From: Auanema rhodensis | Taxonomy: Eukaryota > Animalia > Nematoda | Direction of reading: 5' to 3' | NCBI GenBank assembly: GCA_964057225.1 | Contig: OZ059895.1 | Span: 17,856,001-17,920,000 of the forward strand | DNA length: 64,000 bases | Shown here: one piece after another, positions 1,792-40,345 of the stretch | How positions within the stretch are numbered: position 1 is the stretch's first letter | Layout of the letters: each line of letters starts with the position of its first letter | The notes under the pieces: generated by a model | The model's database searches: none | The model's input: the letters and a program-made list of their open reading frames with translations, nothing else | Told to the model about the DNA's origin: nothing | Translations under genes and position numbers: made by a program

Positions 1792-2486
1792 TACCAGGAC
1801 ACCGGGAACCCTGAGCACCAGGACCCCCGAGCACCAGGACACCGGGAACCCTGAGCACCAGGACCCCCGAGCACCAGGACACCGGGAACCCTGAGCACCA
1901 GGACCCCCGAGCACCAGGAACCCCGAGGACCCCCGAGCACCAGGACCCCCGAGCACCAGGAACCCCGAGGACCCCCGAGCACCAGGACCCCCGAGCACCA
2001 GGAACCCCGAGGACCCCCGAGCACCAGAACCCCCGAGCACCAGGAACCCCGAGGACCCCCGAGCACCAGGACCCCCGAGCACCAGGAACCCCGAGGACCC
2101 CCGAGCACCAGGACCCCCGAGCACCAGGACCCCCGAGCACCAGGAACCCCGAGGACCCGGAACCCCGAGGACCAGGACCCCCGAGCACCAGGAACCCCGA
2201 GGACCCGGAACCCCGAGGACCCCCGAGGACCCCCGAGCACCAGGAACCCCGAGGACCCCCGAGGACCCCCGAGCACCAGGACCCCCGAGCACCCCCGAGG
2301 ACCCCCGAGCACCAGGACCCCCGAGCACCAGGACCCCCGAGGACTCCCGAGCACCAGGACCCCCGAGGACTCCCGAGCACCAGGACCCCCGAGGACTCCC
2401 GAGGACTCCCGAGCACCAGGAAGACCAGGAACCCCGAGGACTCCCGAGCACCAGGAAGACCAGGAACCCCGAGGACTCCCGAGGAC
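1792..2486. repeat. GC-rich composite minisatellite built from modules GGACCCCCGA / GGAACCCCGA / GGACTCCCGA / GCACCA
   Basis: Irregular tandem reiteration of 6-, 10- and 16-nt modules; the + strand has almost no T; directly abuts the first tRNA-array unit. Confidence 0.9.
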
Positions 2487-5400: not shown

Positions 5401-8400
5401 CACCTTAGTTTGAAGAAATAACATCTGTAAATCAATTCAAAACTACCCTCAACTGCTGAGCTTCGCCTCGTTCTTGTTTCTATTTGTTTCATATTGTTCA
5501 TCCACCAACAGTGACTGTATAGAAATATTTTTCTATCTTATTGTAGCCTCTATAGCTCAGTCGCCTGGAGGCAATTTTTTTCTTTCTGAACACCTCAGTT
5601 TGAAGAAATAACATCTGTAAATCAATTCAAAATTACCCTCAACTGCTGAGCTTCGCCTCGTTCTTGTTTCTATTTGTTTCATATTGTTCATCCACAAACA
5701 GTGACTGTATAGAAATATTTTTCTATCTTATTGTAGCCTCTATAGCTCAGTCGCCTGGAGGCAATTTTTTTCTTTCTGAACACCTCAGTTTGAAGAAATA
5801 ACATCTGTAAATCAATTCAAAATTACCCTCAACTGCTGAGCTTCGCCTCGTTCTTGTTTCTATTTGTTTCATATTGTTCATCCACAAACAGTGACTGTAT
5901 AGAAATATTTTTCTATCTTATTGTAGCCTCTATAGCTCAGTCGCCTGGAGGCAATTTTTTTCTTTCTGAACACCTTAGTTTGAAGAAATAACATCTGTAA
6001 ATCAATTCAAAATTACCCTCAACTGCTGAGCTTCGCCTCGTTCTTGTTTCTATTTGTTTCATATTGTTCATCCACCAACAGTGACTGTATAGAAATATTT
6101 TTCTATCTTATTGTAGCCTCTATAGCTCAGTGGCAGAGCGTTGGTCTTGTAAACCAAAGGTCGGTGGTTCAATCCCGCCTGGAGGCAATTTTTTTTCTTT
6201 CTGAACACCTCAGTTTGAAGAAATAACATCTGTAAATCAATTCAAAACTACCCTCAACTGCTGAGCTTCGCCTCGTTCTTGTTTCTATTTGTTTCATATT
6301 GTTCATCCACCAACAGTGACTGTATAGAAATATTTTTCTATCTTATTGTAGCCTCTATAGCTCAGTCGCCTGGAGGCAATTTTTTTTCTTTCTGAACACC
6401 TCAGTTTGAAGAAATAACATCTGTAAATCAATTCAAAACTACCCTCAACTGCTGAGCTTCGCCTCGTTCTTGTTTCTATTTGTTTCATATTGTTCATCCA
6501 CAAACAGTGACTGTATAGAAATATTTTTCTATCTTATTGTAGCCTCTATAGCTCAGTCGCCTGGAGGCAATTTTTTTTCTTTCTGAACACCTCAGTTTGA
6601 AGAAATAACATCTGTAAATCAATTCAAAATTACCCTCAACTGCTGAGCTTCGCCTCGTTCTTGTTTCTATTTGTTTCATATTGTTCATCCACCAACAGTG
6701 ACTGTATAGAAATATTTTTCTATCTTATTGTAGCCTCTATAGCTCAGTGGCAGAGCGTTGGTCTTGTAAACCAAAGGTCGGTGGTTCAATCCCGCCTGGA
6801 GGCAATTTTTTTTCTTTCTGAACACCTCAGTTTGAAGAAATAACATCTGTAAATCAATTCAAAACTACCCTCAACTGCTGAGCTTCGCCTCGTTCTTGTT
6901 TCTATTTGTTGCATATTGTTCATCCACAAACAGTGACTGTATAGAAATATTTTTTTCCTTATTGTAGCCTCTATAGCTCAGTGGCAGAGCGTTGGTCTTG
7001 TAAACCAAAGGTCGGTGGTTCAATCCCGCCTGGAGGCAATTTTTTTTCTTTCTGAACACCTCAGTTTGAAGAAATAACATCTGTAAATCAATTCAAAATT
7101 ACCCTCAACTGCTGAGCTTCGCCTCGTTCTTGTTTCTATTTGTTTCATATTGTTCATCCACCAACAGTGACTGTATAGAAATATTTTTCTATCTTATTGT
7201 AGCCTCTATAGCTCAGTCGCCTGGAGGCAATTTTTTTTCTTTCTGAACACCTCAGTTTGAAGAAATAAAATCTGTAAATCAATTCAAAATTACCCTCAAC
7301 TGCTGAGCTTCGCCTCGTTCTTGTTTCTATTTGTTGCATATTGTTCATCCACAAACAGTGACTGTATAGAAATATTTTTCTATCTTATTGTAGCCTCTAT
7401 AGCTCAGTCGCCTGGAGGCAATTTTTTTTCTTTCTGAACACCTCAGTTTGAAGAAATAACATCTGTAAATCAATTCAAAATTACCCTCAACTGCTGAGCT
7501 TCGCCTCGTTCTTGTTTCTATTTGTTGCATATTGTTCATCCACAAACAGTGACTGTATAGAAATATTTTTATTCCTTATTGTAGCCTCTATAGCTCAGTG
7601 GCAGAGCGTTGGTCTTGTAAACCAAAGGTCGGTGGTTCAATCCCGCCTGGAGGCAATTTTTTTTCTTTCTGAACACCTCAGTTTGAAGAAATAACATCTG
7701 TAAATCAATTCAGAATTACCCTCAACTGCTGAGCTTCGCCTCGTTCTTGTTTCTATTTGTTTCATATTGTTCATCCACAAACAGTGACTGTATAGAAATA
7801 TTTTTCTATCTTATTGTAGCCTCTATAGCTCAGTGGCAGAGCGTTGGTCTTGTAAACCAAAGGTCGGTGGTTCAATCCCGCCTGGAGGCAATTTTTTTTC
7901 TTTCTGAACACCTCAGTTTGAAGAAATAACATCTGTAAATCAATTCAGAATTACCCTCAACTGCTGAGCTTCGCCTCGTTCTTGTTTCTATTTGTTGCAT
8001 ATTGTTCATCCACAAACAGTGACTGTATAGAAATATTTTTATTCCTTTTTGTAGCCTCTATAGCTCAGTGGCAGAGCGTTGGTCTTGTAAACCAAAGGTC
8101 GGTGGTTCAATCCCGCCTGGAGGCAATTTTTTTTCTTTCTGAACACCTCAGTTTGAAGAAATAACATCTGTAAATCAATTCAGAATTACCCTCAACTCCT
8201 GAGCTTCGCCTCGTTCTTGTTTCTATTTGTTTCATATTGTTCATCCACAAACAGTGACTGAAAAGAAATAAGAAAGAAATATATAAATATTTTTCTATCT
8301 TATTGTAGCCTCTATAGCTCAGTGGCAGAGCGTTGGTCTTGTAAACCAAAGGTCGGTGGTTCAATCCCGCCTGGAGGCAATTTTTTTTCTTTCTGAACAC

Positions 8401-10714
8401 CTCAGTTTGAAGAAATAACATCTGTAAATCAATTCAGAATTACCCTCAACTCCTGAGCTTCGCCTCGTTCTTGTTTCTATTTGTTTCATATTGTTCATCC
8501 ACAAACAGTGACTGAAAAGAAATAAGAAAGAAATATATAAATATTTTTCTATCTTATTGTAGCCTCTATAGCTCAGTGGCAGAGCGTTGGTCTTGTAAAC
8601 CAAAGGTCGGTGGTTCAATCCCGCCTGGAGGCAATTTTTTTTCTTTCTGAACACCTCAGTTTGAAGAAATAACATCTGTAAATCAATTCAGAATTACCCT
8701 CAACTGCTGAGCTTCGCCTCGTTCTTGTTTCTATTTGTTGCATATTGTTCATCCACAAACAGTGACTGTATAGAAATATTTTTCTATCTTATTGTAGCCT
8801 CTATAGCTCAGTGGCAGAGCGTTGGTCTTGTAAACCAAAGGTCGGTGGTTCAATCCCGCCTGGAGGCAATTTTTTTTCTTTCTGAACACCTCAGTTTGAA
8901 GAAATAACATCTGTAAATCAATTCAAAACTACCCTCAACTGCTGAGCTTCGCCTCGTTCTTGTTTCTATTTGTTGCATATTGTTCATCCACAAACAGTGA
9001 CTGTATAGAAATATTTTTTTCCTTATTGTAGCCTCTATAGCTCAGTGGCAGAGCGTTGGTCTTGTAAACCAAAGGTCGGTGGTTCAATCCCGCCTGGAGG
9101 CAATTTTTTTTCTTTCTGAACACCTCAGTTTGAAGAAATAACATCTGTAAATCAATTCAAAATTACCCTCAACTGCTGAGCTTCGCCTCGTTCTTGTTTC
9201 TATTTGTTTCATATTGTTCATCCACCAACAGTGACTGTATAGAAATATTTTTCTATCTTATTGTAGCCTCTATAGCTCAGTCGCCTGGAGGCAATTTTTT
9301 TCTTTCTGAACACCTCAGTTTGAAGAAATAACATCTGTAAATCAATTCAAAATTACCCTCAACTGCTGAGCTTCGCCTCGTTCTTGTTTCTATTTGTTTC
9401 ATATTGTTCATCCACAAACAGTGACTGTATAGAAATATTTTTCTATCTTATTGTAGCCTCTATAGCTCAGTGGCAGAGCGTTGGTCTTGTAAACCAAAGG
9501 TCGGTGGTTCAATCCCGCCTGGAGGCATTTTTTTTCTTTCTGAACACCTTAGTTTGAAGAAATAACATCTGTAAATCAATTCAAAACTACCCTCAACTGC
9601 TGAGCTTCGCCTCGTTCTTGTTTCTATTTGTTTCATATTGTTCATCCACCAACAGTGACTGTATAGAAATATTTTTCTATCTTATTGTAGCCTCTATAGC
9701 TCAGTCGCCTGGAGGCAATTTTTTTCTTTCTGAACACCTCAGTTTGAAGAAATAACATCTGTAAATCAATTCAAAATTACCCTCAACTGCTGAGCTTCGC
9801 CTCGTTCTTGTTTCTATTTGTTTCATATTGTTCATCCACCAACAGTGACTGTATAGAAATATTTTTCTATCTTATTGTAGCCTCTATAGCTCAGTCGCCT
9901 GGAGGCAATTTTTTTTCTTTCTGAACACCTCAGTTTGAAGAAATAACATCTGTAAATCAATTCAAAATTACCCTCAACTGCTGAGCTTCGCCTCGTTCTT
10001 GTTTCTATTTGTTTCATATTGTTCATCCACCAACAGTGACTGTATAGAAATAAGAAAGAAATATATAAATATTTTTATTCCTTATTGTAGCCTCTATAGC
10101 TCAGTGGCAGAGCGTTGGTCTTGTAAACCAAAGGTCGGTGGTTCAATCCCGCCTGGAGGCAATTTTTTTTCTTTCTGAACACCTCAGTTTGAAGAAATAA
10201 CATCTGTAAATCAATTCAGAATTACCCTCAACTCCTGAGCTTCGCCTCGTTCTTGTTTCTATTTGTTTCATATTGTTCATCCACAAACAGTGACTGAAAA
10301 GAAATAAGAAAGAAATATATAAATATTTTTCTATCTTGTTGTAGCCTCTATAGCTCAGTGGCAGAGCGTTGGTCTTGTAAACCAAAGGTCGGTGGTTCAA
10401 TCCCGCCTGGAGGCATTTTTTTCATTCTGAACACCTCAGTTTGAAGAAATAACATCTGTAAATCAATTCAGAATTACCCTCAACTGCTGAGCTTCGCCTC
10501 GTTCTTGTTTCTATTTGTTTCATATTGTTCATCCACAAACAGTGACTGTATAGAAATATTTTTATATCTTATTGTAGCCTCTATAGCTCAGTGGCAGAGC
10601 GTTGGTCTTGTAAACCAAAGGTCGGTGGTTCAATCCCGCCTGGAGGCATTTTTTTTCTTTCTGAACACCTCAGTTTGAAGAAATAACATCTGTAAATCAA
10701 TTCAAAACTACCCT
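2487..10714 (+). repeat. tRNA-Thr(TGT) tandem array block 1 (~37 units, 13 with a 44-nt internal tRNA deletion)
   Basis: 234-235-bp unit (72-nt tRNA + ~162-nt spacer); 190-191-bp deleted units; a few ~254-bp units with a spacer insertion. Confidence 0.95.
2631..2702 (+). tRNA. tRNA-Thr(TGT), first copy and representative of the array unit
   Basis: 72-nt cloverleaf: acceptor GCCTCTA/TGGAGGC, D stem GCTC/GAGC, anticodon stem TTGGT/ACCAA with loop CT-TGT-AA (anticodon 2663-2665), T arm GGTGG-TTCAATC-CCGCC, discriminator A, no encoded CCA, followed by an oligo-T Pol III terminator. Confidence 0.97.
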
Positions 10715-11080
10715 CGTTCCATTATGCTCCTACGTATATTGAACAGACCATTGTAGTCTGCTCAACTACGCGTATAGTATTCCATAAGTGTAGCGGTATG
10801 GAAACAGAGCATAAGGATTACATAAGATAAGGAAATATATAGGTTTATTATACACAATACAATATCATTACAATACAATAACACAAGTATAAAGTAAACT
10901 ACATTTACAAGACAAAGACTAATATATAAGATTAACTAAGTTAGATGCAAACCGTCCATGGGCTTGCAAAGGGGCGAACTCCCGAATAGGGGCATGAGGG
11001 AAGGCGGTGCCATTCCTCATTCCTCTAGTCGGTCTGGCTCTAACCCTGTAGTTACATATATAGAGTCTCCGAATGGAACG
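10715..11080 (-). repeat. 3' LTR of gypsy family A
   Basis: Direct repeat of 22418-22783; 9-bp terminal inverted repeat CGTTCCATT...AATGGAACG; AATAAA on the - strand near 10844-10849. Confidence 0.95.
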
Positions 11081-11780: not shown

Positions 11781-14700
11781 TTATTCTTCTTCATTCCTCG
11801 GAAGCCATATTTCGTCTTCATTTTCATCTTCTGGCTCTGTATCTATGCTATCCTTGTTGTTCCTGTTGATCACTTCTATTATTTCGATGTCGCTATCTTC
11901 TTCTGCTTGACTTTCTCGAAATCTTGCGCGAGTGTTGTAAGAGATGTTTTGTGAAGCAGGAGAGAAGATTTTCAAGTTATCTTTGTGGATATCTTGTAGT
12001 TTTCCTGATGAATTTCTGATTTGAACTTTTGATCCTTCTACGTTGATGACTTCGTATGGTCCATCATAGCTTTTCCGAAGCTTTTGGCCGATTTGGTGTG
12101 ATTTTATAGTCGTCATCACCATGTCGCCCGGTTGAATGTCTCTATGGTGTGCTCTTTGCGTTCTATCTTTCTTCTTTTTCGCATTTTCTTGATTTTTAGC
12201 TATGCGGTTCTTTATTATTTCGTCTCTCTTGTCCATATCTGGTCTTCTTTGGAGTAATTCTTCAGAAATTTCTTGAATTTTGGTGATCGTTTCTGGTAAT
12301 TCAGCGTCCATTGACATTCTGCATTCTTTACCGAATAATGCAATGTAAGGCGCAATCCCTGTAGTCGCGTGCTGAATATTGTTAATAGCAAAAGTGATTT
12401 TTGGTAATACAGTATCCCAGTCACTAAGGTCCTCTTTTAAGTAGTGGGTTAATCCTTCTTCGAGGGTTCTGTGAAGTCTTTCCACTTGTCCATTTGAGTT
12501 CTTTTGGTGTGGTAGTGTTGGTTCATGTTTGATTCCAAGTTTAGTACACATTTCTTCGAACTTTTTGGATACAAAGTTCGAACCTCTATCGGTGATCAAG
12601 CGATGGGGTGGTCCAAAAATGTAAACGAAATGTCGTAGAAATCGGTCAATTGTGATTTCCGTTGTTATTTGTGGTACAGCAATTGTTGTTGACCATTTTG
12701 TAAATGCGTCTTGCATGGTAATGACGTAGGTACAGTTTCTTTTTGAAGGGGGAAATGGTCCCATTACGTCCATGTGGACTCGTTCAAATGGCTTGCTTGG
12801 TATCTCAAAATGACCTATTGGTTGTACCGTCATGGAATGTGGATCTTTTTTTCTTTGAGCACATTTAATGCAGTTCTTGATGAATATAGTAATGTCGTTC
12901 TGCATATTTGTCCAATAGAATCTTCTTAGAATTGCTTCTTTTGTTTTAATAATTCCTTGATGTGCTGCAATTGTAGGATCCTCATGAAAAACTTTGATTA
13001 TTTCCTCAATTATGGGGTGTTCTTGTGGTATTACGATAGCGGGTTGTGGCTTTTTGTCTGTTGGTTTTGTATAGAGCAAGTCATTTATGACACAATATCT
13101 GTCATTAGCTGTCATGTTCTTTTGTGCTCTATATTCAATCTCCGCTATCGTCCGTTTAATCCAAGGGGTGCTTAGTTGAATTTCCTTTATTGTTGGTGTA
13201 TTTATGGCGTTAATGTGAATTTCTTCCATTTTCTTCTTCTTTGTTTCCGGCTTAGCATCGTTAGCTTCTTCACCTATATATCGAGATAGAGCATCGCATA
13301 CTTTATTTAATTGGCCTGCGCGATATTTTATTTCAATATCATATTCTTGGATGACCAGCTGGAACTTCGCAAGACGACCAAATAAGTCTCTGCGTGTCAT
13401 TAAGCTGGTGAGAGGTCGATGGTCCGTAATACATATAGTATGAGTTCCAAGAATGTATGTACGGAATTGATTTAATGCATATACAAGGCCTAATGCTTCT
13501 ATCTCGATTGGTGCGTAGTTACGTTCGGCTTTAACTAGTTTTCTGCTTGCAAATGCGATAGGGTGTAGATTTTTCAGAGGTTGTTTTGGATCTTCCGGTT
13601 GTAATAATACAGCACCTATGGCGATGTTACTACCGTCGCTTTCAACTATAAACAAGCGGTCCGATTTAGGTGGGCTTAAAACGGGTGCCTGTATTAAACT
13701 TCTTTTAAGGAGGTCTAAAGCTTCTTGATGTTTGTTTTCCCATTTGAATTCAGTATCTGCCTTTGTCAGATCGTATAAAGGGCTTGCGATACGTGCAAAA
13801 TCTTTCATGAATTTGCGAAAGAATCCAACCATTCCCAAGAATGCTCGTACACCTGTTGCATTCTTTGGTGCCGGATAATCTTGTATGGCGGCGACTTTTT
13901 GAGGGTCAGGTTTTATACCTTGACGTCCAACAATAAGTCCTAGAAATTTCACTTCTGGTTGAGCAAAAGCGCATTTCTTAAGCTTTATCTTCATTCCCAA
14001 TTCTTCTACTGCTTGCAGTAAATCATCGATATCTTTGAGATGTTGTTCTCTTGTATCAGATATAACTAATAGATCATCCAAATAAACAAATAGTTTACAA
14101 GAACATTTACTTTGCAAATACCTTACTGCTGTTTGAAAGGTATGAGGGGCTCCACAAAGGCCCATCGGCATCCGTTTGTACTGGTATGTGCCGGATGTGG
14201 TCGTAAATGCTGTTAGTGGTCGATCTGATTTTCTCAAGGATATTTGAAAAAATCCTGACACTAAATCGAAGTTTGAGAAAAATTGGGCGCCTGCTGCCAA
14301 ATCAACTATGTCAGAAATGCTTGGAATGACATAAGTTTGCTTGCGTGTGACATTATTTAAAGCTCGAAAATCTGTCACAAACCTATACGTGTCATCTTTC
14401 TTCTTAACTAGTACTACAGGGCTATTAAATAGAGATGTAGAAGGCTCTATTATGCCTTGCTCAAGCATTTCTTTGACTTGTTTTTCAATTTCTTCCTGTT
14501 TTCCTAAGGGAATACGTGTTATTCTCGGCTTTGGCATATCCATATCTGTTCTCAATGGTATGGTATGCTCTATAGAACCTTTAAATAAGCCTATTTTCCT
14601 GTCCTCGTTAAGAAATGCCTCACGATGGCTTTCAATTATTTTTGTAAGCTCATGTTTTTCTTCTTTCGTGAGATCAGCATTCTCTAGATCAAGATCTTTT

Positions 14701-17700
14701 ATGAAGTCTCTTGGAAAATATGGTAGTTTACTCTCCCAATCGGCTTCTGGCGGAACATATGGTAGAATTGGCTTATGCTTAAAGGGTTCACAAGCCGGAA
14801 TTTCTCCAATTATTGCCTGTCCGATGACTGAATTAGCTTCCATAGCTATTGTTTCATCGGTATTGTTACGGAACATAACATATACTCCACTGGTATCACG
14901 AAACGCAGTTGGATATAATGATTTTAATGCGCTTCCACTATCCCCTAAGACAACCACTTCGTTAGATTCTAGTGGTTTATCTGTCTTTATTGGGATAGGT
15001 GCCTCTTCATCAGGCTTTAATGTTTTTGTTCTTAAATTAATGATATTCACAGTTATCTCCGTATGCTTAATAGATTCGTTTCCTATTAATGGGATGGCAT
15101 TGTTTCCAATCTCCAACCTCTTCTTGGATGGTTTAAGGCTGACGTCGATGTTTTCGCTGTCAAGCGCTTTCATGAAATCTAGTCCAATCAAAGCAGGAGC
15201 AGGACAGTCACGATCGTTTGAGACCAAAAAGGTGTGTTCGATCTCGTAGCCGGCAATTTCAATTACAAGATTTATCTTTCCATAAAATGTGAAAGTGGAC
15301 TTGTTGGCTGCCATCGCTACTAAATGTCTCTTCTTGACATTTTCAGCCATGTTCAGATATTTGAGGGTGGAGAGCCTAACATATGACACTGATGAGCCTG
15401 AATCCCATAAAGCTAAAATCAGTTTATCTTCAACTGATATATATATTAATGGTAACTTTGTTTCCGCTGATGCAATAGAAGCAACAAATGGTATTGCGAT
15501 TGGAATAAATGTTACTAAAGCAGGATAGTATTGCTTCATGATGTTATCTGGCATCTGTTGGTCTGGGCGGCTTACAAGTTCCAATGTTTCTTCATAGCCT
15601 GGGGGCTCATTATCTATTTCATGGACATGCATTACGGTTAGTGGAGTGGCTCTGAAGAACCAAAATTTAGCAACAACGAAAAGAATTATTAATACTGCGG
15701 CAATCGTGACTATTGATCCTATAAAGATGAGTGTTCTCTCAATTGAACCTATTAGAAATTGTTTTACGCTAGTCCAGGCGGAAGTTGTGAACTCAGCTGC
15801 TTTAGAGATATAGTCACTGCCCTTTTTCAAAAGATTAAAGGCTGACGTAATCTTTGGATCGTTGTGAATAGTATGTAAAACATGGTTCTGTCGTATGGAT
15901 GCTAAACTTGCTCCATATGCAATAGCTGTTGACATTGAGTAAACTCTCAATGATAAATTGGTGTATAAGTTAGCGCCTGTGAACTTTAAAGGTGTTAATT
16001 GGTGGTATTGCGCTTTATCAAAGAGTGATATTGGTTTTACTTCAACCGATCCATTTATATTTATCCATTCTCCATTTTGATAGTACACATCTGTTGGTAC
16101 ATGTTCGCAATCTATCTCTTTTCCATGTGTTAATAAGTCTCTTGATCCTGGAGCAGCAAAATATAATCTCTCATCTTCTGTTATTACTGGTGTTTCCAAA
16201 TAGCATGTATCATTGATCTTATGATTATGATAAACAGCTTTAGGTTGAAGAGGTAAGCATATATGAACATGAACTATATCGCTGCCTACGAAACGGGCTG
16301 CAATATCCTCTCTTCCTAAAATAGTCCTCATTGCTATTGTGGGTTCTATGTGTAAAATAGAACGCCATAGCTCGAGGTATCTATTTTGAATCTCACATAT
16401 GGATTCATAAGATTCCATAAAATGTTTCTGTAGCTCTTCTTGTATGAGTGTTGTTGTATATTGTAGATGATCTTGAGCTATTCTGCGAGATACGTTGAGG
16501 TTGAATTGTATTTCGTTGTTCACTTTTGACGCTGTATACGTTGCCTGAGCCTGAATTTCTCTGGTTTCTACGGGTGGAGATGATGTTCTTTGTTTCCTTA
16601 AGGTTCGTGACGCCGTGTCAGTGACTGTTGCTAATGTTGTTGGCGAGAGAGTCGTAGTTATCACGGCTGTTGTCGTGTCAACTATGGTTGTCGTCGGAAT
16701 CCGAGTCGTATAGCTTATAGTTGTCTCCTGAACTAGTGAAGCGGGTTTGTCCGTTGTTGTCGTTAATGACAGTCTTCTAGTCAGATAAGGCGGTGTTTCA
16801 ATATCCTCTAACAGTGGTAAAAATGTTTTTATAAGTAGCTGGCGTGTATCCGCGCTTGGGGTTTGAATGCGAGGGTGGGGGCCCATCGATATACCGTAGT
16901 TAGAATCTTTATCTCGATATAGTTTGTTGGTATCTGGCACATTGATTGTTAATTGTCGGAACTTTTCATCATCTACGGCTGCTGCTGTTTTATTTGGCCT
17001 TATTACTCGCAATGTCATCAAGTTATGGTATAAGTAAAGTGTATTTCTAAGTACTATACGCTCATCAGCATTGTCAGTTGTTAAAGTTGGTCGGATAGGC
17101 GGCATGTTCACAAAGGATTTTAAAACCTCTTGCCTTGATGGTACCGACAGATTGTTTTCAAATATTACCGGTGTATAAGCTAGCTCCATCGCTATGCTTT
17201 CGGCTCTTTCGCGGTAGGATCCGTCCTTTTCTAGTAGTTTTTCGTCAAATTCGTGTGCTGTTAATCTGTCACCTATCTGTTCTAATAATTGTTGTGAGGT
17301 TAAATACCGTATAGCGCCGCGAGTGGTTGCTGCCAGTTCCTTTTGCGCAAGAAAATAAAGTATTGCTTCCTCAGGGTCGTGTATTTCGTATGTTTGAAGG
17401 AAACGTTGTATGGATTTATCAGATACGGGACTTCTTAAGAAGAAATAAAACTTCTCGGGATGTGCTGAAACCCAATCAATAATTGAATATGAAGGGTTGA
17501 CAGCTCGTCTGGCCTTTATAAGCGGTATTATCTGATAAATACCAGGATTACTCATCACCGGTCGTAAGAAAGGATAAGGACAAATATTTAATATTAAAGT
17601 TTCAAAATCTTCCTGTTTTTGTATCCACTCCTTGTTTAATTCAACCGTGCATTCCGCAATTGCTCTTTTATCTCTTTTCGCCGGAAGTTTCTTATATTCT

Positions 17701-20489
17701 CTCTCTATTAAAACATGGATATTGGTGTCATTTGGGTACTGTGGTAAGAGAATGTAATTGCCAGTCGTGGTGTGGAAGATTGGCTGTTTAAAACAAGAAG
17801 ATATTTGCTTCGGTATCTCTTTTTGATCGATTACAAGGGCTGATTGAGTGGTTGGTAACAGAATAATGCCGTCTCCAATTATCGCATCATATTCACTCAT
17901 GTCGATATAGTTGCATCGATATTCATAAGGCTGTTTCTCCCATATGATGATTGAGGTATCTGATGCACATTCTCCATGATGCGCTAAGCATCCTTCAGTA
18001 TTTAGTATTAAATTGGAGATTATAGTTTCATCTGGCATCCGTGTCATAGCCCCTCTTTCGATAACCAATCTGGCTTTCTCTTTACATAGTTCATTATTAA
18101 AAGATCGGCCTGGCGAGAAGGAAGGCTCGTCAGTTGCATATGTTATGCTGTCGATCTTCTTTAATTCACTCCAATTCCATCTTCTATCTCTCACTGCCAG
18201 TCTGCATTCTGCAGCTGGTATCTTTTCAATTCTCGCTATCGTTGTATTGGTATCTCTAAGGAACAAAAGGTCTCTGATACACATTTTATGAATTTCTTTG
18301 GAGCATCTCCATGCATCCCATTCATGTGCCGTTTGATTCCTTGTATAAAGATGAACTTTTGTTCGTAAGATATGCTTTATTGGTGGTAATAAGCATTTTC
18401 GGAGAGATGGGGGACGGAGAAGGGCTCCTCCAGTAGCTTTAGTACATAGCTGGTATGCTTCAGCTGTTGTAACCAGTGATAAGATTACTGATAAAGCTAC
18501 GGCTAAAGTCAAAGGAGATATCAGAGTCAAATTATTGACTCTTGAGCCTCTACCTCTGCCTCTATTGTTGTTATTTCCCCTAAAGGTACTGTTATTTCTC
18601 TGTCTATTATTGCTCATTTCTTGATTTTGTGATGCATTGTGGCTTCTTTGATACCCATTTTGATTTTGATTCTGATAATTTCGACCGCGGTCACCAAAAT
18701 TGCGGTTCCTAGCAAATGGGTTTTGGAAATTCCAGCCTTTTTGATTTTTTGAAAATTTATGATAATTTTGATTGTTTTGAAAGTTTGGATGATAATTGTT
18801 ATAATTATTATTATAATTTTGATAATTTTTATTATTAAAAGATTGATAACCTCTTGCCATACCTCTCCCACCATTGTTTCTGCGCGGGGGGAAAGTTCTT
18901 TCAATTGCGTTAACCAATAGCGCCTGAGGGTCTGCTACTTGGTTTGCAATTGATTCCTCCCAGCGAGCACTATCAACAGCCTCAGCAAAAGTTTTGGGTT
19001 TTGCTCGAATTACCCCTGGGCGTATCGTATTTTTCAAGCCTCTCAAAAATGTGGACCTCAGAATGTGATCTTTATGAGTATCACTATTAGAGAAAGCATT
19101 TAAGCTGAGGTTTCTTAACGTTTGTGCAAAACCATCAATTGATAAATCGCCTTGAGTGCTGTTTTGAAGTGTGATAAGGGCAGGGTCTTGATTGTATTCG
19201 GGACACAGCTTGGATGTTAACTCTTCTATTAGGGTAACCCAAGGTCCAGCTGTTCTGACCTTGTCAGGTAGCTCTAAATAAGCTTCCTCTGCTCTATCAT
19301 TTTTCAATAGTAATGGTAAAATAGTTAGTCTTTCGGGCATCACTAAGCCTAAGGCGTTAGAAAAGGTATTAAACTTTGCCACGAAATCTCTAAAGTTACG
19401 ACTTCCGTCGTATATGGGGCAATAAGGTGAGCTTAATGCGTGCGCAATGGTAGATTTACCAGCTCCCGGAAGACGTGGTGTCTCCGTCATGGTTGGTATA
19501 TCCTCAGGGTATGTGCGAGATGACGTAATCCCTTTACTGCCTGAGCTTCTCGCCGTTAAGTTCTTACCTCCCTTTTTCGAGTTACCAGATGTTGGATAAC
19601 TAATGGTAGGGGCGGCTGAGGAGAACCGCTTCCCTGGGAGTTTGATAACTCGACTCGTTGCCTGAGGCGTCGAATGTATTGAAACGCTTGAACTGGGTAT
19701 AGCGCTATCTGACTTATTAAGGGTTGGGTTGGAGGATACGTGAAGAGAGTTATCAACTTGTTCTGTTGTTACCTCCCCTGGAGACAAATTCAAAACTTTT
19801 ATTAAGCGAGCTGTTAAAGATTTCTTACTTTTGAACTTATCAGTAGTTAGTGATAAGGGCAAAACTTCGGTAATTTCCTGATTTGGTTCTACGGGATTAT
19901 TAGAGGTTGAGCGCCTACGCGGTGTATTAGTTTTTCTTTTATTAATCTTTTTAGAATCAAGCTTTTTCGAATCAAGCTTATCAGTGATAACTGATAAGGG
20001 TGATTTGCGAATAGTGAGAGATGAGGTTTTATTAAGTTGTGAGTTTTCTGTCGGAGTGGAAAATGCCTGCGGTGTTAGAGTTAGTTCAAAAGAAGATGCA
20101 AGATCGTTATCAGTATTAACTGATAAAGTTGATAAGTTTAGGTGGGGGGTGGCTGGTGAAGTATTAGAGGTTATTTGTTTTGGTTTTTGAATTTTTTGAA
20201 TCTTTTTATTACTTTTAAAAGAGTGTACCTTTGGAGTTGAAGCTGAAGTTTGAATATTGTAGTCCTGAATATAGAAATCAGGGTCCTCCTCGGTGTTGTC
20301 CGGAGGTGAATACGTGCCTTCTCGAGGAATGAAGGTTTTCTCGACTTTGGGTTTTACCTCTTGTTCAGGCTCTTCAATCTGAACACTGAGGAGTCGAGTG
20401 CGGCTTCTGGTTCGACTGGCGACTGCGATGTCGTCACTGGACTCAGAAGGGTATAGAGCAGGGACGGCCGAAGAGTATCTTCGTGCCAC
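11781..20489 (-). CDS. Gag-Env-Pol polyprotein (capsid-like Gag, gB-like envelope, aspartic protease, RT, RNase H, integrase); true start uncertain (GTG 20489, first ATG 19490)
   Basis: Protease LWDSGS (DSG 15404-15396), RT YLDD (14084-14073), RNase H ESDGS/EALG/TDH, integrase HHCC + D,D,E (VHMD, ITDRGSN, NGQVER) + GPY; Gag-like FLRGL motif; no stop in 2902 codons. Confidence 0.95.
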   Translation of the reverse strand: MARRYSSAVPALYPSESSDDIAVASRTRSRTRLLSVQIEEPEQEVKPKVEKTFIPREGTYSPPDNTEEDPDFYIQDYNIQTSASTPKVHSFKSNKKIQKIQKPKQITSNTSPATPHLNLSTLSVNTDNDLASSFELTLTPQAFSTPTENSQLNKTSSLTIRKSPLSVITDKLDSKKLDSKKINKRKTNTPRRRSTSNNPVEPNQEITEVLPLSLTTDKFKSKKSLTARLIKVLNLSPGEVTTEQVDNSLHVSSNPTLNKSDSAIPSSSVSIHSTPQATSRVIKLPGKRFSSAAPTISYPTSGNSKKGGKNLTARSSGSKGITSSRTYPEDIPTMTETPRLPGAGKSTIAHALSSPYCPIYDGSRNFRDFVAKFNTFSNALGLVMPERLTILPLLLKNDRAEEAYLELPDKVRTAGPWVTLIEELTSKLCPEYNQDPALITLQNSTQGDLSIDGFAQTLRNLSLNAFSNSDTHKDHILRSTFLRGLKNTIRPGVIRAKPKTFAEAVDSARWEESIANQVADPQALLVNAIERTFPPRRNNGGRGMARGYQSFNNKNYQNYNNNYNNYHPNFQNNQNYHKFSKNQKGWNFQNPFARNRNFGDRGRNYQNQNQNGYQRSHNASQNQEMSNNRQRNNSTFRGNNNNRGRGRGSRVNNLTLISPLTLAVALSVILSLVTTAEAYQLCTKATGGALLRPPSLRKCLLPPIKHILRTKVHLYTRNQTAHEWDAWRCSKEIHKMCIRDLLFLRDTNTTIARIEKIPAAECRLAVRDRRWNWSELKKIDSITYATDEPSFSPGRSFNNELCKEKARLVIERGAMTRMPDETIISNLILNTEGCLAHHGECASDTSIIIWEKQPYEYRCNYIDMSEYDAIIGDGIILLPTTQSALVIDQKEIPKQISSCFKQPIFHTTTGNYILLPQYPNDTNIHVLIEREYKKLPAKRDKRAIAECTVELNKEWIQKQEDFETLILNICPYPFLRPVMSNPGIYQIIPLIKARRAVNPSYSIIDWVSAHPEKFYFFLRSPVSDKSIQRFLQTYEIHDPEEAILYFLAQKELAATTRGAIRYLTSQQLLEQIGDRLTAHEFDEKLLEKDGSYRERAESIAMELAYTPVIFENNLSVPSRQEVLKSFVNMPPIRPTLTTDNADERIVLRNTLYLYHNLMTLRVIRPNKTAAAVDDEKFRQLTINVPDTNKLYRDKDSNYGISMGPHPRIQTPSADTRQLLIKTFLPLLEDIETPPYLTRRLSLTTTTDKPASLVQETTISYTTRIPTTTIVDTTTAVITTTLSPTTLATVTDTASRTLRKQRTSSPPVETREIQAQATYTASKVNNEIQFNLNVSRRIAQDHLQYTTTLIQEELQKHFMESYESICEIQNRYLELWRSILHIEPTIAMRTILGREDIAARFVGSDIVHVHICLPLQPKAVYHNHKINDTCYLETPVITEDERLYFAAPGSRDLLTHGKEIDCEHVPTDVYYQNGEWININGSVEVKPISLFDKAQYHQLTPLKFTGANLYTNLSLRVYSMSTAIAYGASLASIRQNHVLHTIHNDPKITSAFNLLKKGSDYISKAAEFTTSAWTSVKQFLIGSIERTLIFIGSIVTIAAVLIILFVVAKFWFFRATPLTVMHVHEIDNEPPGYEETLELVSRPDQQMPDNIMKQYYPALVTFIPIAIPFVASIASAETKLPLIYISVEDKLILALWDSGSSVSYVRLSTLKYLNMAENVKKRHLVAMAANKSTFTFYGKINLVIEIAGYEIEHTFLVSNDRDCPAPALIGLDFMKALDSENIDVSLKPSKKRLEIGNNAIPLIGNESIKHTEITVNIINLRTKTLKPDEEAPIPIKTDKPLESNEVVVLGDSGSALKSLYPTAFRDTSGVYVMFRNNTDETIAMEANSVIGQAIIGEIPACEPFKHKPILPYVPPEADWESKLPYFPRDFIKDLDLENADLTKEEKHELTKIIESHREAFLNEDRKIGLFKGSIEHTIPLRTDMDMPKPRITRIPLGKQEEIEKQVKEMLEQGIIEPSTSLFNSPVVLVKKKDDTYRFVTDFRALNNVTRKQTYVIPSISDIVDLAAGAQFFSNFDLVSGFFQISLRKSDRPLTAFTTTSGTYQYKRMPMGLCGAPHTFQTAVRYLQSKCSCKLFVYLDDLLVISDTREQHLKDIDDLLQAVEELGMKIKLKKCAFAQPEVKFLGLIVGRQGIKPDPQKVAAIQDYPAPKNATGVRAFLGMVGFFRKFMKDFARIASPLYDLTKADTEFKWENKHQEALDLLKRSLIQAPVLSPPKSDRLFIVESDGSNIAIGAVLLQPEDPKQPLKNLHPIAFASRKLVKAERNYAPIEIEALGLVYALNQFRTYILGTHTICITDHRPLTSLMTRRDLFGRLAKFQLVIQEYDIEIKYRAGQLNKVCDALSRYIGEEANDAKPETKKKKMEEIHINAINTPTIKEIQLSTPWIKRTIAEIEYRAQKNMTANDRYCVINDLLYTKPTDKKPQPAIVIPQEHPIIEEIIKVFHEDPTIAAHQGIIKTKEAILRRFYWTNMQNDITIFIKNCIKCAQRKKDPHSMTVQPIGHFEIPSKPFERVHMDVMGPFPPSKRNCTYVITMQDAFTKWSTTIAVPQITTEITIDRFLRHFVYIFGPPHRLITDRGSNFVSKKFEEMCTKLGIKHEPTLPHQKNSNGQVERLHRTLEEGLTHYLKEDLSDWDTVLPKITFAINNIQHATTGIAPYIALFGKECRMSMDAELPETITKIQEISEELLQRRPDMDKRDEIIKNRIAKNQENAKKKKDRTQRAHHRDIQPGDMVMTTIKSHQIGQKLRKSYDGPYEVINVEGSKVQIRNSSGKLQDIHKDNLKIFSPASQNISYNTRARFRESQAEEDSDIEIIEVINRNNKDSIDTEPEDENEDEIWLPRNEEE
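15655..18530 (-). other. Envelope glycoprotein domain within the polyprotein (class III fusogen, herpesvirus gB / chuvirus G-like)
   Basis: Internal signal peptide ending AEA|YQLC (18530-18456), Cys-rich ectodomain with about 10 N-x-S/T sequons, furin-type KRDKR (17678-17664), a gB domain III/IV-like segment ICEIQNRYLELWRSILHIEP..LGREDIAARFVGSDIVHVHICLP..CY, and a C-terminal TM helix (15735-15655). Confidence 0.85.
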
Positions 20490-20905
20490 TTTGGAATCAC
20501 TCTTGGTTTGGAAAAACCGCGAGTGTTTCGTTATATGGGGGATGTTGACGTTGAATGAGTGACAAGAAATTCAGGTCGGTTATAGGGAAAAGTAAGAAAA
20601 GTTTGAAGATTGAGACGTGGCGTCTTTCGCCGAGAATCGTTATTAGATGAGAAAGAGTTTTAAAATCTTGGCCTGAGATCTGGCTCCGCCTATCTACCGT
20701 ATTCTCTTTTCTTTATTCTATTTCACAGATGTTCATCAATTATAAATTTTGTTGGTCTTCGCTCTTTCTAGCCTCAATCTTAATACTTTACTCTAATTGA
20801 ATTCTTGAAAGTATGAGAGAGATTTTCAGTCGTTTTATGTCCCCTTTTTATGCATAAGAATCTTTATATTTGTAGAGCTGAAAAAAAAAATAAATAAATC
20901 AAAGA

Positions 20906-21439
20906 ATGGCTTATGAAGGTCTATCGGGAATGACTTTTGTCTTGAGGAAGCTGTACGCTGACCTCGTCTTGTATGATCAAGACGAAGTGTTAGCTTATAG
21001 GCCGCACCCAGACATAATTAAGATGGTTGGTTAAAACAAAGAAACATGTTATCTTAATAAGAATTTTTAGTTTATTGAGGATTTAAAGATGCATTATCTG
21101 GGAAGGGGATTAGTAAACTTCTCCCTAATGCAGGAAATAGCGGATGAGGTTGCAGCTATCCGGCGATGGTGCCTCACCGACTTGTGCGCGCATTGGTATG
21201 AAAACCCAAATCTGGTCGCATCCCCTTGGAATTGGTATGAGCATAAGTCTCATGATTTTTATGATTATATGTCTAAAATTTTGTTTAAAATTTATTTATT
21301 TTATGAACAGTCTCCTATGGGCTTATTGCTAAGGACCTCTGCGGATTCAGTGTATTCGCAGTATTTAGAGCCTAGCGATGAGCCCATCTCACAGCCTATA
21401 GAATTTGTGAGACAGTTGCATTTTAAATGGGGCTTTTAA
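20906..21439 (+). CDS. Predicted spliced antisense accessory gene in the family A leader (exons 20906-21025, 21071-21439; 162 aa, unknown function)
   Basis: 40-codon ATG exon; a 45-nt GT..TTTTTAG intron (21026-21070) joins in frame to the 116-aa ORF; AATAAA at 21456-21461. Confidence 0.6.
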
Positions 21440-22404
21440 CAATTGTTTTATATATAATAAATACTTAATTTCACTCATTTGTTCTCTCTCTCTTTTTTTT
21501 TCATAACACAAACTTTGGTCGAGCTTATTAATAAAGAAGGAGTGCGTGCGCCTTGGGAAAATGGCTCATGTGCACGTTGATTATTAAAAGCCGTGGGCGA
21601 TTCTTTTTCGGAATGATTATGGCATGCTAATGAGATTCCGAGAATATTTAAAAAGATTGCTCATTTTACTAATGGACTGAGACCAAAGCTCGTTTATAAA
21701 ACGCAATTTTTTTCTTTAAACCATTCTACTAATTTATAGAATATTACAATATGAATACTACGGTAGGTGTGTGGGAATATCTTATGATGTTAGCAACAAA
21801 AATGAGCTGAGGAAGGTGACACATTCTACGGAGAAGAAAACATCCGTAGCCCATGTGCTTTCGCCAAAATGACCTGACAGGCAATAAAATTTGTGCCAGG
21901 ATTTTTCGGACTAGTGTGGTCTATTCTCACAATCAAAAAAAAATAAAAACCGAATAACGGCTCCCGCAAAAATATTTAGTTAGCATGCTCTTTTACGCCT
22001 GAATTTAACTTTCAAATCTCTAGTCCTGACCACAATAAAATATTAAACTTTGTGCGCTTTCAAAATTTCATTCTAACTCCTCGTTGCCAAATAATAATGT
22101 AATCAAAATTTCGTTTGGTGAAATTGTCCCCTATTTCGATCCAAACGTCCTCAAAAAAAAATGCAAGAGAAGCGGTGCAGGATACGGTATTATAAGGGTG
22201 GACACTCAGACGGTTTTATGAGTGGGGACAGCGGGTGAAATTTCAAAATTATATAGTCCTAGCTCTCTAAAAGAGAGATCCCTTGTACCTGCACCTTATA
22301 CAAGTTGGCGCCCTCATTATGTTGCTAACCGTGGAGGAAGTTTTAATTTAGATATCAAAATATGGACTTTTTATGCGAGTTTTTTGCGACAAAAATGAGT
22401 TCGA

Positions 22405-22417
22405 GGTGGAACCTCCA
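22405..22417 (-). promoter_or_regulatory. Primer-binding site complementary to the tRNA-Gln 3' end
   Basis: TGGAGGTTCCACC directly follows the 5' LTR; it is the complement of the animal tRNA-Gln 3' end GGTGGAACCT-CCA. Confidence 0.85.
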
Positions 22418-22783
22418 CGTTCCATTATGCTCCTACGTATATTGAACAGACCATTGTAGTCTGCTCAACTACGCGTATAGTATTCCATAAGTGTAGCGGT
22501 ATGGAAACAGAGCATAAGGATTACATAAGATAAGGAAATATATAGGTTTATTATACACAATACAATATCATTACAATACAATAACACAAGTATAAAGTAA
22601 ACTACATTTACAAGACAAAGACTAATATATAAGATTAACTAAGTTAGATGCAAACCGTCCATGGGCTTGCAAAGGGGCGAACTCCCGAATAGGGGCATGA
22701 GGGAAGGCGGTGCCATTCCTCATTCCTCTAGTCGGTCTGGCTCTAACCCTGTAGTTACATATATAGAGTCTCCGAATGGAACG
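22418..22783 (-). repeat. 5' LTR of gypsy family A
   Basis: Direct repeat of 10715-11080 with no differences seen by eye; adjacent to the PBS. Confidence 0.95.
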
Positions 22784-24883
22784 CCCTCAACTGCTGAGCT
22801 TCGCCTCGTTCTTGTTTCTATTTGTTTCATATTGTTCATCCACAAACAGTGACTGTATAGAAATATTTTTCTATCTTATTGTAGCCTCTATAGCTCAGTG
22901 GCAGAGCGTTGGTCTTGTAAACCAAAGGTCGGTGGTTCAATCCCGCCTGGAGGCAATTTTTTTCTTTCTGAACACCTCAGTTTGAAGAAATAACATCTGT
23001 AAATCAATTCAAAATTACCCTCAACTGCTGAGCTTCGCCTCGTTCTTGTTTCTATTTGTTTCATATTGTTCATCCACAAACAGTGACTGTATAGAAATAT
23101 TTTTCTATCTTATTGTAGCCTCTATAGCTCAGTGGCAGAGCGTTGGTCTTGTAAACCACAGGTCGGTGGTTCAATCCCGCCTGGAGGCATTTTTTTTCTT
23201 TCTGAACACCTCAGTTTGAAGAAATAACATCTGTAAATCAATTCAAAATTACCCTCAATTGCTGAGCTTCGCCTCGTTCTTGTTTCTATTTGTTTCATAT
23301 TGTTCATCCACCAACAGTGACTGTATAGAAATATTTTTCTATCTTATTGTAGCCTCTATAGCTCAGTCGCCTGGAGGCAATTTTTTTTCTTTCTGACCAC
23401 CTCAGTTTGAAGAAATAACATCTGTAAATCAATTCAAAATTACCCTCAACTGCTGAGCTTCGCCTCGTTCTTGTTTCTATTTGTTTCATATTGTTCATCC
23501 ACCAACAGTGACTGTATAGAAATATTTTTCTATCTTATTGTAGCCTCTATAGCTCAGTGGCAGAGCGTTGGTCTTGTAAACCAAAGGTCGGTGGTTCAAT
23601 CCCGCCTGGAGGCAATTTTTTTTCTTTCTGAACACCTCAGTTCGAAGAAATAACATCTGTAAATCAATTCAAAACTACCCTCAACTGCTGAGCTTCGCCT
23701 CGTTCTTGTTTCTATTTGTTGCATATTGTTCATCCACAAACAGTGACTGTATAGAAATATTTTTCTATCTTATTGTAGCCTCTATAGCTCAGTGGCAGAG
23801 CGTTGGTCTTGTAAACCAAAGGTCGGTGGTTCAATCCCGCCTGAAGGCAATTTTTTTCTTTCTGAACACCTCAGTTTGAAGAAATAACATCTGTAAATCA
23901 ATTCAGAATTACCCTCAACTGCTGAGCTTCGCCTCGTTCTTGTTTCTATTTGTTTCATATTGTTCATCCACAAACAGTGACTGTATAGAAATATTTTTAT
24001 ATCTTATTGTAGCCTCTATAGCTCAGTGGCAGAGCGTTGGTCTTGTAAACCAAAGGTCGGTGGTTCAATCCCGCCTGGAGGCATTTTTTTTCTTTCTGAA
24101 CACCTCAGTTTGAAGAAATAACATCTGTGAATCAATTCAAAATTACCCTCAACTGCTGAGCTTCGCCTCGTTCTTGTTTCTATTTGTTTCATATTGTTCA
24201 TCCACCAACAGTGACTGTATAGAAATATTTTTCTATCTTATTGTAGCCTCTATAGCTCAGTGGCAGAGCGTTGGTCTTGTAAACCAAAGGTCGGTGGTTC
24301 AATCCCGCCTGGAGGCATTTTTTTAATTTCTGAACACCTTAGTTTGAAGAAATAACATCTGTAAATCAATTCAAAACTACCCTCAACTGCTGAGCTTCGC
24401 CTCGTTCTTGTTTCTATTTGTTTCATATTGTTCATCCACAAACAGTGACTGTATAGAAATATTTTTCTATCTTATTGTAGCCTCTATAGCTCAGTGGCAG
24501 AGCGTTGGTCTTGTAAACCAAAGGTCGGTGGTTCAATCCCGCCTGAAGGCAATTTTTTTCTTTCTGAACACCTCAGTTTGAAGAAATAACATCTGTAAAT
24601 CAATTCAAAATTACCCTCAACTGCTGAGTTTCGCCTCGTTCTTGTTTCTATTTGTTTCATATTGTTCATCCACAAACAGTGACTGTATAGAAATATTTTT
24701 ATATCTTATTGTAGCCTCTATAGCTCAGTGGCAGAGCGTTGGTCTTGTAAACCAAAGGTCGGTGGTTCAATCCCGCCTGGAGGCATTTTTTTTCTTTCTG
24801 AACACCTCAGTTTGAAGAAATAACATCTGTAAATCAATTCAGAATTACCCTCAACTGCTGAGCTTCGCCTCGTTCTTGTTTCT
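22784..24883 (+). repeat. tRNA-Thr(TGT) array block 2 (~9 units, one deleted)
   Basis: Same 234-bp unit; resumes in register at the CCCT TSD. Confidence 0.95.
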
Positions 24884-26353
24884 TGGAAAAGCATCAAGAA
24901 TTAGCAAAAAAGAAACATGATGCTCGATTACGCACTCACGAAAGAGATATACAAAAAGGAGACTGCGTTATGTTAGCTGTGAAAATGCACAAGCCAGGAC
25001 AAAAGCTTCGGAAAGCTTATGATGGACCATTTGAAGTTATAAATGTGAAGGGAAACATGGTTCAAATCAAAAACCTTTTCGGAAAGATCCAAGACGTTCA
25101 CAAGGACAATCTCAAATTATTTAATCGAGAAACAGATGACGGAATCGCACATATGCCCAGTGCACGTACAGACAGCTCAGACGATGACAGCGTTATCGAA
25201 ATCATAGAGGTTATCAACGGAAACAACAACGATGAAGACTCTTATGACGAACCAGAAGACCTTTCGGATACAAATTGGCTACCATCAAGAAGAAACCATT
25301 AACTCATGAGATTTTATCGTAAATTGTTTTGTAATAACTTTCTTTAAAGTAATACTAGAACACAAATTTTGTAACGAGTCCTCTAAAACAAGTCACTCTT
25401 AAGTCAAAAAGTAAACTAGAGCATAATGAATACGGGAAATGTGAGAAGATAATTCTTTATCATACAGTTCGAACCTTCCTAATTTCAACTAACATCCCCA
25501 TACTAGATGAGATGAAAAATGAAAGACATAGTTTGCAACAATATCTGAGCAACAGTCTTCACTTGAGTAATCAATGACTAAATTTGGAAGTTATTTGGTA
25601 TTACGCAAAACTTTTCTTTTTTTCTAAACTCACACAAATTGAAACAAACAACCGAGCTCTAAAAAAAAAAAAAAAATAGTTAACTTTTTGTCTACACTTG
25701 TTAGAGCGTTATGCTTAAAAACTTTTTTTATTATTATTTTATAAGCACGTTCGCCAATAAAACATAGTCTAGTATTCGTTAAAGAGGGTTAAAACTTTCA
25801 TAATTTGGTTAAAAATTTTTAATTCTTTTCAGATACTGATGTTTTATATTGTATTATGTTCATATTATAAGAATTTTACGTAAAATATTGTATTGTAACA
25901 TGTACTTTAATACACACATTAACCCTTCTGCTACAGTTAATCAAGTCAAAACTTTTGATTGTCGCGAGGACGCGACATAAACTCGAAAAAGGGCACGTTC
26001 CATTCGGATGATCAATGCATTACATTCATATGACGAAGCTGTAGCAGGCGGGTTACAGTCAGAGAATGCGAGACTGAGAGAAGACGACCCGCCCTTTTCC
26101 ATATTACAACACTTCAGCTTTGCCTCAGGGACGATCATGGATGGTTGGTCGTTCTCTCTCTGTTCTCTATTAGTTTAACCTTTACTTAGTTATATGTATC
26201 TTATTGTAATCACGTAGATATAATAAACCAATCTTTCTCGCGTCTTATGTTTATCCTTATGCTCCATGTTTAACCGCTACATCTGGAATACTACCACGCT
26301 CATCTTGTAGACTCCATTGGTCTGTAAGATCGACGCGGGAGCATAACGGAACG
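24883..26353 (+). mobile_element. 3' fragment of gypsy family B (integrase C-terminus 24883-25302, 3' UTR, PPT, LTR)
   Basis: ORF with YDGPF motif homologous to the family A integrase tail; PPT AAAAAGGGCA at 25986-25995; 5' end fused to the array spacer. Confidence 0.92.
25996..26353 (+). repeat. 3' LTR of gypsy family B (358 bp)
   Basis: Starts CGTTCCATTCGGA after the PPT and ends GAGCATAACGGAACG, paralleling the family A LTR ends; AATAAA near 26222. Confidence 0.88.
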
Positions 26354-34217: not shown

Positions 34218-34222
34218 CAATA

Positions 34223-40200: not shown

Positions 40201-40345
40201 TGTAACGAGTCCTCTAAAACAAGTCACTCTTAAGTCAAAAAGTAAACTAGAGCATAATGAACACGGGAAATGTGAGAAGATAATTCTTTATCATACAGTT
40301 CGAACCTTCCTAATTTCAACTAACTTCCCCATACTAGATGAGATG
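34223..40345 (+). pseudogene. Degraded gypsy family B internal region: gag, partial env, RT, RNase H, integrase; no LTRs
   Basis: ORFs 34379-37078, 37241-37834, 37749-38918 and 39012-40133 are colinear with the family A polyprotein. Frameshifts near 37060 and 37748; deletions near 36066, 37180 (env C-half, TM and protease lost) and 38915. Confidence 0.92.

Follow-up and report, generated by a model that had tools for sequence, protein, structure and literature searches.

The window analyzed here, a stretch of 64,000 nucleotides from the nematode Auanema rhodensis (contig OZ059895.1), is mostly a 234-bp satellite with LTR elements inserted within it. The satellite, which includes 190- and 254-bp variants and runs in both orientations (2469-10700, 22800-32800, 40300-49600 and 56900-64000), surrounds all three retroelements of the window and also holds, at 24883-25284 (plus strand), a fragment of a related integrase C-terminus with 56% identity. 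One of the three is a BEL/Pao element (49622-55966, minus strand) with DUF1759, reverse transcriptase, Peptidase_A17, integrase and DUF5641 domains and a single in-frame stop at 52580-52582. A second element, at 34211-40133 (plus strand) and 32508-34217, is related to the element that is the subject of this report (47% identity over Gag-Env, 69-78% in Pol) and carries stops and one shift; there is a second, inverted copy of its 3' part (99%), a structure like that of a fold-back rearrangement. The 34211-40133 copy was considered as an env-skipped gag-pol copy and rejected as such, since it keeps the signal and is missing the region from mid-env to past the protease (PR).

The Gag-Env-Pol element

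The remaining element is a complete LTR element on the minus strand that contains the interval of interest, 15396-15735 (approximately aa 1613-1725). Its 5' LTR (22418..22783, 366 nt, termini CGTTCCAT...ATGGAACG) is 99.7% identical to the 3' LTR (10715..11080, 366 nt), which is preceded by a purine tract, and the whole is flanked by a 4-bp target-site duplication, AGGG, at 10711-10714 and 22784-22787. LTR termini are usually TG..CA; those at 22418-22783 and 10715-11080 are 8-bp inverted repeats that start with CG rather than TG (CG..CG). The primer-binding site is a 12-mer of tRNA-Gln type (22406..22417, minus strand), identical to the one that the supplement of an eLife survey (PMC13524379) gives for C. 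latens element 4 and C. tropicalis element 1. The RNA material consists of contigs of four runs (X1-X4) of one study, presumed to be RNA. At 22367-22783 contigs of X1, X3 and X4 cover the LTR (deeply in X1 and X4), and those of X1 and X3 run past the primer-binding site into unrelated sequence; they may come from a sister family, or from a non-autonomous one, that has the LTR in common.

A single Gag-Env-PR-RT-RH-IN frame occupies 11781..20570 (minus strand; 2929 codons from stop to stop) with no internal stop or shift. Along it Pfam matches succeed one another in the order Ty3 capsid (a weak match, E 0.03), gB / Monjiviricetes fusion protein, aspartyl protease, reverse transcriptase (YLDD; 13932..14408), RNase H (13341..13742) and integrase (H2C2 plus core; 12507..13013), the last three likewise on the minus strand. 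The element thus has a capsid upstream of PR-RT-RH-IN together with direct LTRs, primer-binding site, purine tract and target-site duplication, as in Ty3/gypsy (Metaviridae-type) elements, and it has Env between Gag and Pol, with a gB-type ectodomain between signal and transmembrane segment (TM), as in the nematode GAG-ENV-POL errantiviruses with gB-type Env. It is a young, retrovirus-like Ty3/gypsy LTR element with one open Gag-Env-Pol frame.

The first AUG of the frame is codon 361 (19490), with 360 codons open upstream of it. Over the 1243 nt at 19491-20733 (minus strand) AUG is absent in every frame, where 16 would be expected and the lowest shuffle has 5, so that the translation start of Gag is not fixed by sequence; in the second element of the window 624 AUG-free nt precede its Met. 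A strong acceptor-like site lies at 20877. The leader also holds, in antisense, a small two-exon ORF of 40 + 122 codons (20906..21439, plus strand) with an in-frame GT..AG intron of 45 nt at 21026-21070. Contigs of runs X1 and X3 skip this intron in frame, which suggests that these runs hold processed RNA.

Gag, the internal signal segment and Env

Gag (18528..19490, minus strand) comprises the capsid (approximately aa 380-545) and an N/Q/R/G-rich, nucleocapsid-like (NC-like) region that has no CCHC knuckle; motifs resembling PR sites occur in it at aa 553 and 678. It is followed directly by an internal signal peptide (18456..18527, minus strand) with a basic n-region, an h-region at aa 682-700 and small residues at -3/-1, and with a predicted cleavage after aa 705 at AEA/YQ (aa 703-706, nt 18464-18453). 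The gB-type (class III) Env ectodomain then extends over 15729..18455 (minus strand) and contains 16 Cys, 10 sequons, a furin-like RDKR site at aa 966, a helical insert and a Thr-rich region. The Monjiviricetes_fusion match of Env is above the Pfam cut-off and the Glycoprotein_B match (E 7e-9) below it. The ectodomain model has a mean pLDDT of 71, and its top Foldseek matches are herpesvirus gB at E ~1e-11, with low TM-scores (TMq 0.16-0.17). The large helical insert and Thr-rich, mucin-like stretch lie downstream of RDKR, at approximately 16500-17660 on the minus strand (aa 970-1360), and vary in length among relatives.

The Env transmembrane helix (15672..15728, aa 1615-1633) has a Kyte-Doolittle value of 3.09 and is followed by a predicted cytosolic linker (15456..15671) that runs from the end of the TM to the first strand of the aspartyl protease (15081..15455; DSG, D1723 at nt 15404), all on the minus strand. 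The model of the protease folds as a Ddi1 / retropepsin domain. Within the linker lie PPGY (15594..15605, aa 1656-1659), which is of the PPxY type known as ESCRT late domains, and, just before PR, YPAL, a YPxL-like sequence, with a hydrophobic TFIP stretch (15471..15527); the hydrophobic stretch is PALVTFIPIAIPFVASIA, aa 1683-1700, nt 15524-15471. A tail with a PPxY-type motif and a hydrophobic stretch running into the protease is what the sequence-only reading had described, apart from its length, which is 72 aa and not ~60. Both PPGY and YPAL are on the predicted cytosolic side, where they may serve as late domains.

Relatives and the Env-protease fusion

Searches yielded 157 further proteins, or 159 with the two of the window. 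The closest named ones belong to Auanema sp. JU1783 (48% over aa 1330-1830) and to Caenorhabditis (29-32%), which makes a rhabditid nematode the likely host. Capsid, Env and PR are in one chain in 29 of the 159, and 21 of these have RT as well. Among the 77 proteins with both gB and PR matches, 68 have gB, TM and PR in one chain; the nine excluded are seven in which the catalytic Asp was not located, one without a TM and one of another order. The fusion of Env to PR is therefore not an accident of a single copy, and the earlier proposal that Pol is fused to the Env tail rather than to Gag, already evident in the 2929-codon frame, is borne out by these relatives. Linkers were compared in the 59 rows that fall below 60% core identity (median length 77 aa). 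An earlier redundancy filter on linker identity, which gave P[TS]AP in 9/47, lumped together short rows that are unrelated, and core identity was used in its place. The tree used below is a quick one in which 27 of the 65 inner branches are open.

An h-region precedes the start of Env in 40 of 42 capsid-bearing rows, a set that includes the two proteins of the window and one row with Env after Pol; in relatives Env typically starts with Y/F-x-x-C. The stretch before the h-region is more basic than that after it in 28 of the 40, a bias that fits a location of Gag outside. A -3/-1 test is passed after the signal in 38/40, and also in 35/59 of the TM controls, making it a weak discriminator. At the TM the downstream flank is more basic than the upstream one in 53 of the 59 linker rows, the positive-inside polarity, and this fits a cytosolic tail.

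Predicted topology and packaging of Pol

Because the signal-like segment is conserved, the TM has this polarity and no second TM is conserved (see below), Pol would face the cytosol on the Env tail, cut from Gag. The sequence-only reading had Pol enter on membrane-anchored Env, severed from Gag; the Env part of this agrees with the predicted topology, and the separation requires amendment in that Gag too would stay anchored. We therefore favor, with a probability of roughly 0.6, a polyprotein threaded twice through the ER membrane, in which Gag would be anchored by its signal and Pol carried on the Env tail; the two would assemble at a single face of the membrane, and PR would bring about maturation.

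The steps would be as follows. The internal signal would insert with Gag outside and signal peptidase would cut after AEA, leaving Gag membrane-anchored by its C-terminal signal segment and both halves tethered to the same membrane. The TM would stop transfer, so that the linker and Pol would remain cytosolic on Env. Gag and Env-Pol would then collect on a single face of the membrane in a ratio of approximately 1:1 and be released by budding, whether from the cell or into a lumen, and in some lineages ESCRT would be recruited by P[TS]AP or PPxY of the linker. PR would dimerize and cut recurrent (I/V)-N/H-x-(I/V/L) sites ahead of the signal (which would free NC), a short way past the TM, on either side of PR and at the RH/IN junction. 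The late motif would thereby end up in a small spacer peptide comparable to HIV p6, though located on the Env-Pol half. The cleavage and budding steps are inferred from sequence features. Such a topology would be like that of flaviviruses and hepaciviruses, in which the capsid is anchored by an internal signal and a lumenal glycoprotein is followed by cytosolic enzymes; these are unrelated RNA viruses, however, and their enzymes are not packaged.

Late-type and protease-site-like motifs

P(S/T)AP, which acts through Tsg101, and PPxY, which acts through Nedd4, are textbook late domains (PMC3705266). Conservation of PPxY in relatives was a check suggested with the sequence-only reading, and the motif is not family-wide: it occurs in 3 of the 59 linkers against 0.91 in shuffled ones (118 of 2000 shuffles reach the count, not significant). 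The linkers that carry it are those of the present protein, of the relative from Auanema and of a distant row; the fragment P0022 has it too, with PPSY in P0003 and PPQY in P0022, and apart from the distant row PPxY is confined to the closest relatives of the element. YPxL is likewise not significant (2/59; 455 of 2000 shuffles reach the count), and PPxY, LPxY and YPxL were all rejected as family-wide motifs on the linker counts. P[TS]AP, by contrast, occurs in 8/59 linkers against 0.31 shuffled, a count reached in 0 of 2000 shuffles, and its density is approximately 36 times higher in linkers (8 in 4757 aa) than elsewhere in the same proteins (4 in 86221 aa); reversed-motif controls are found in 0/59 linkers. 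This motif was first noticed by eye and tested thereafter. It is scattered, occurring in 10 of the 68 rows with 7 changes on the quick tree, P0005 of this element's own clade among them. Late-type motifs are thus enriched in the linker, but the enriched motif is P[TS]AP rather than PPxY, and neither is conserved family-wide. The single PPGY alone is weak evidence.

A further set of motifs recurs at domain borders. [IV]N[NAS][IVL] is present in 23/59 linkers, where shuffling gives 1.2, and in 4/16 of the RH/IN junctions, where it gives 0.25, and a slightly wider form is found ahead of the signal in 16/40 against 0.57, in each case with a pattern derived from the same sequences in which it was counted. 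With a broadened pattern, the only one matched by this element's post-TM site, VHEI, 9 of 11 rows have a site upstream of the late motif. We infer that these motifs are PR cleavage sites because they are situated at the borders of domains. If this is right, PR would release NC from its signal anchor and excise a spacer that carries the late motif.

These observations allow a more specific proposal, to which we give somewhat less than an even chance: that Pol would be brought into particles as a cytosolic tail on the fusogen, with Gag on the same membrane, that the late domain would have moved from Gag to a spacer excised by PR, with P[TS]AP and PPxY interchangeable there, and that budding and re-entry would be needed even in the germ line. 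A role of the linker motifs in driving budding is less certain than the twice-threaded topology. With the same topology, the motifs could instead sort Env-Pol to endosomes, control its turnover or be lineage-specific extras, budding being independent of them. In keeping with this, any of PPxY, P[TS]AP and YPxL is found in 12 of the 59 linkers, and these canonical motifs are absent from the other 47 and from whole clades; cellular membrane proteins too use late motifs for vesicle sorting (PMC9511404), and non-primate foamy viruses are described as being without P(S/T)AP (PMC3705266). On the other hand, the Gag parts are nearly free of such motifs (5 P[TS]AP/PPxY in 19943 aa), which concentrate in the linker, and P[TS]AP and PPxY share one position, following the post-TM site. 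Motifs on which budding does not depend are a real but rather unlikely alternative.

Splice signals and RNA

Splice sites were scored out of 8 against a nematode consensus that was not trained on the host. One candidate 3' splice or trans-splice acceptor, predicted from the sequence at 15632..15658 (minus strand), scores 7/8 and is the only such acceptor between TM and PR; the exon would start at 15651, and the first AUG thereafter, 19 nt on at 15632 (Met1647), is in frame. A strong donor is also present ahead of the first AUG of Gag, at 19567. Cis-splicing, or trans-splicing of a spliced leader (SL), to 15651 could accordingly give a pol-only mRNA translated from Met1647, whose product would be packaged through RNA or Gag contacts much as in foamy viruses, the Env-Pol fusion being then a second route or a by-product. 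Foamy viruses are reported to make Pol by splicing (PMC3185560) and Cer1 to use both splicing and SL1 (PMC3315495), and the two closest relatives have a Met at a like position. However, six CAG-type acceptors on the 12-kb sense strand score 7/8, and the sequence of the one at 15651 is that of Phe-Phe-Arg codons, as are typical where a TM ends. A Met within 25 aa after the TM is not enriched (25/59 against 22.3 expected), and an acceptor-compatible residue pair followed by Met is found in 11/59. Separate expression of Pol, which leaves the in-frame Env-PR of 68 proteins unexplained, is considered improbable.

The alternative named in the sequence-only reading was different, a gag-pol splice in which an intron takes out signal, ectodomain and TM and yields a cytosolic Gag-Pol for intracellular transposition. 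Nematode Ty3/gypsy elements do splice, Cer1 being the reported case (PMC3315495), and one same-phase pair exists: acceptor 15651 with donor 18654 (4/8), its only same-phase donor after the capsid. The best post-capsid donor, 18862 (6/8), pairs only with acceptors of at most 5/8, and the good acceptor has only a weak donor; by this consensus the element contains no good same-phase pair whose use would take out the signal together with the TM. Splice sites are not significantly depleted in the ORF, as selection against them would have it (acceptors 4 against 7.3 expected, donors 2 against 4.8). The contigs show no env-skipping joint over a cover too patchy to speak for or against one, the bins 15149-15551 being nearly empty and 18776-19178 empty in all four runs; X1 and X2 have contigs over parts of env and the tail, and X3 has a deep contig over 11778-13950 which, as a contig, shows no start or level. 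Env-skipping appears slightly less probable than a separate Pol, and the splicing alternative for which the sequence gives some support is a pol-only RNA, not gag-pol.

The hydrophobic stretch ahead of the protease

The twice-threaded topology also depends on how the stretch PALVTFIPIAIPFVASIA is read. A second hydrophobic peak of at least 1.9 occurs in one of the 68 linkers, that of this element (Kyte-Doolittle 2.07; median 0.77), and a peak of at least 1.6 in seven, five of them in this element's clade; in the model aa 1682-1696 have a pLDDT below 50. An (L/T)-Y-(V/I)-P motif, which the stretch fits, lies just ahead of PR in 17/59 linkers against 1.7 shuffled, and in many relatives leads into an NA/V-type site. 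A conserved second TM was rejected on the median, the single linker at or above 1.9 and the low pLDDT, and the stretch is likely the approach to the N-terminal cleavage site of PR rather than a membrane crossing. That it is nonetheless a second TM or signal, or that the first signal is uncleaved and Gag-Env-Pol remains one chain until PR acts, is very improbable: the stretch does end in an ASA motif, and foamy Env is reported not to be cut co-translationally by signal peptidase (PMC3705266), but the stretch contains three prolines, a second TM would place PR-RT-IN in the lumen, and Pol would remain on the Env tail even if the first signal were uncleaved.

Relation to known elements and viruses

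The order Gag-Env-Pol is already published, and the element adds a member to that kind; a continuous reading frame is reportedly described by Sacco et al. 2022. Chary and Hayashi (eLife 2026, PMC13524379), who credit Sacco et al. 2022 (J Gen Virol) with the nematode GAG-ENV-POL order, report gB-type Env in this order in nematode, bryozoan and flatworm elements. The element resembles their GAG-ENV-POL "ancient errantiviruses" in its Ty3/gypsy Pol, gB Env between Gag and Pol, near-identical LTRs and tRNA-Gln primer-binding site; it differs in its CG..CG LTR ends, and there is no Auanema entry among 30 of the 36 nematode rows of that survey (PMC13524379). In its main text the terms "late domain", "budding", "cytoplasmic tail", "polyprotein" and "splic" do not occur, and processing and packaging are not treated there. 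Neither a packaging model nor late domains for this arrangement were found in the literature searched, in which the eLife survey was the one paper to turn up on the arrangement, and the discussion of Sacco et al. 2022 may already state the model.

Like C. elegans Cer1 (PMC3315495), the element is a nematode Ty3/gypsy element with Gag and Pol in one polypeptide. Cer1 splices an accessory product and, unlike the present element, forms cytoplasmic capsids in germ cells, with no Env between Gag and PR in its description (PMC3315495). Atlas virus, a nematode belpaovirus, shares the single polyprotein of approximately 2,800 aa with Gag, Pol and a captured fusogen, but is of the BEL/Pao type, has Env last so that Gag and Pol are joined, and carries a class II fusogen (PMC9094657). 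The foamy viruses are alike in that Pol is not joined to Gag, and their budding is reported to need Env and a PSAP late domain acting via Tsg101 (PMC3705266, PMC3185560). They differ in translating Pol from a spliced RNA and in having the late domain within Gag; in the present element Pol would be carried by Env, and the motif lies in the Env-PR linker. The eLife survey calls the mechanism of transmission of the GAG-ENV-POL elements elusive (PMC13524379). Among viral contigs no relative of the element was found.

To our knowledge, reverse-transcribing elements package Pol either as Gag-Pol or, in the foamy viruses, from its own RNA. The linker gives handles on the arrangement proposed here, in the form of late motifs, predicted cut sites and one candidate acceptor, and relatives are present in species of Caenorhabditis, in which the native RNA and protein are accessible to study. 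If the proposal is true, Env-tethered Pol would be a further packaging route, and these elements would be membrane-dependent and probably budding-dependent.
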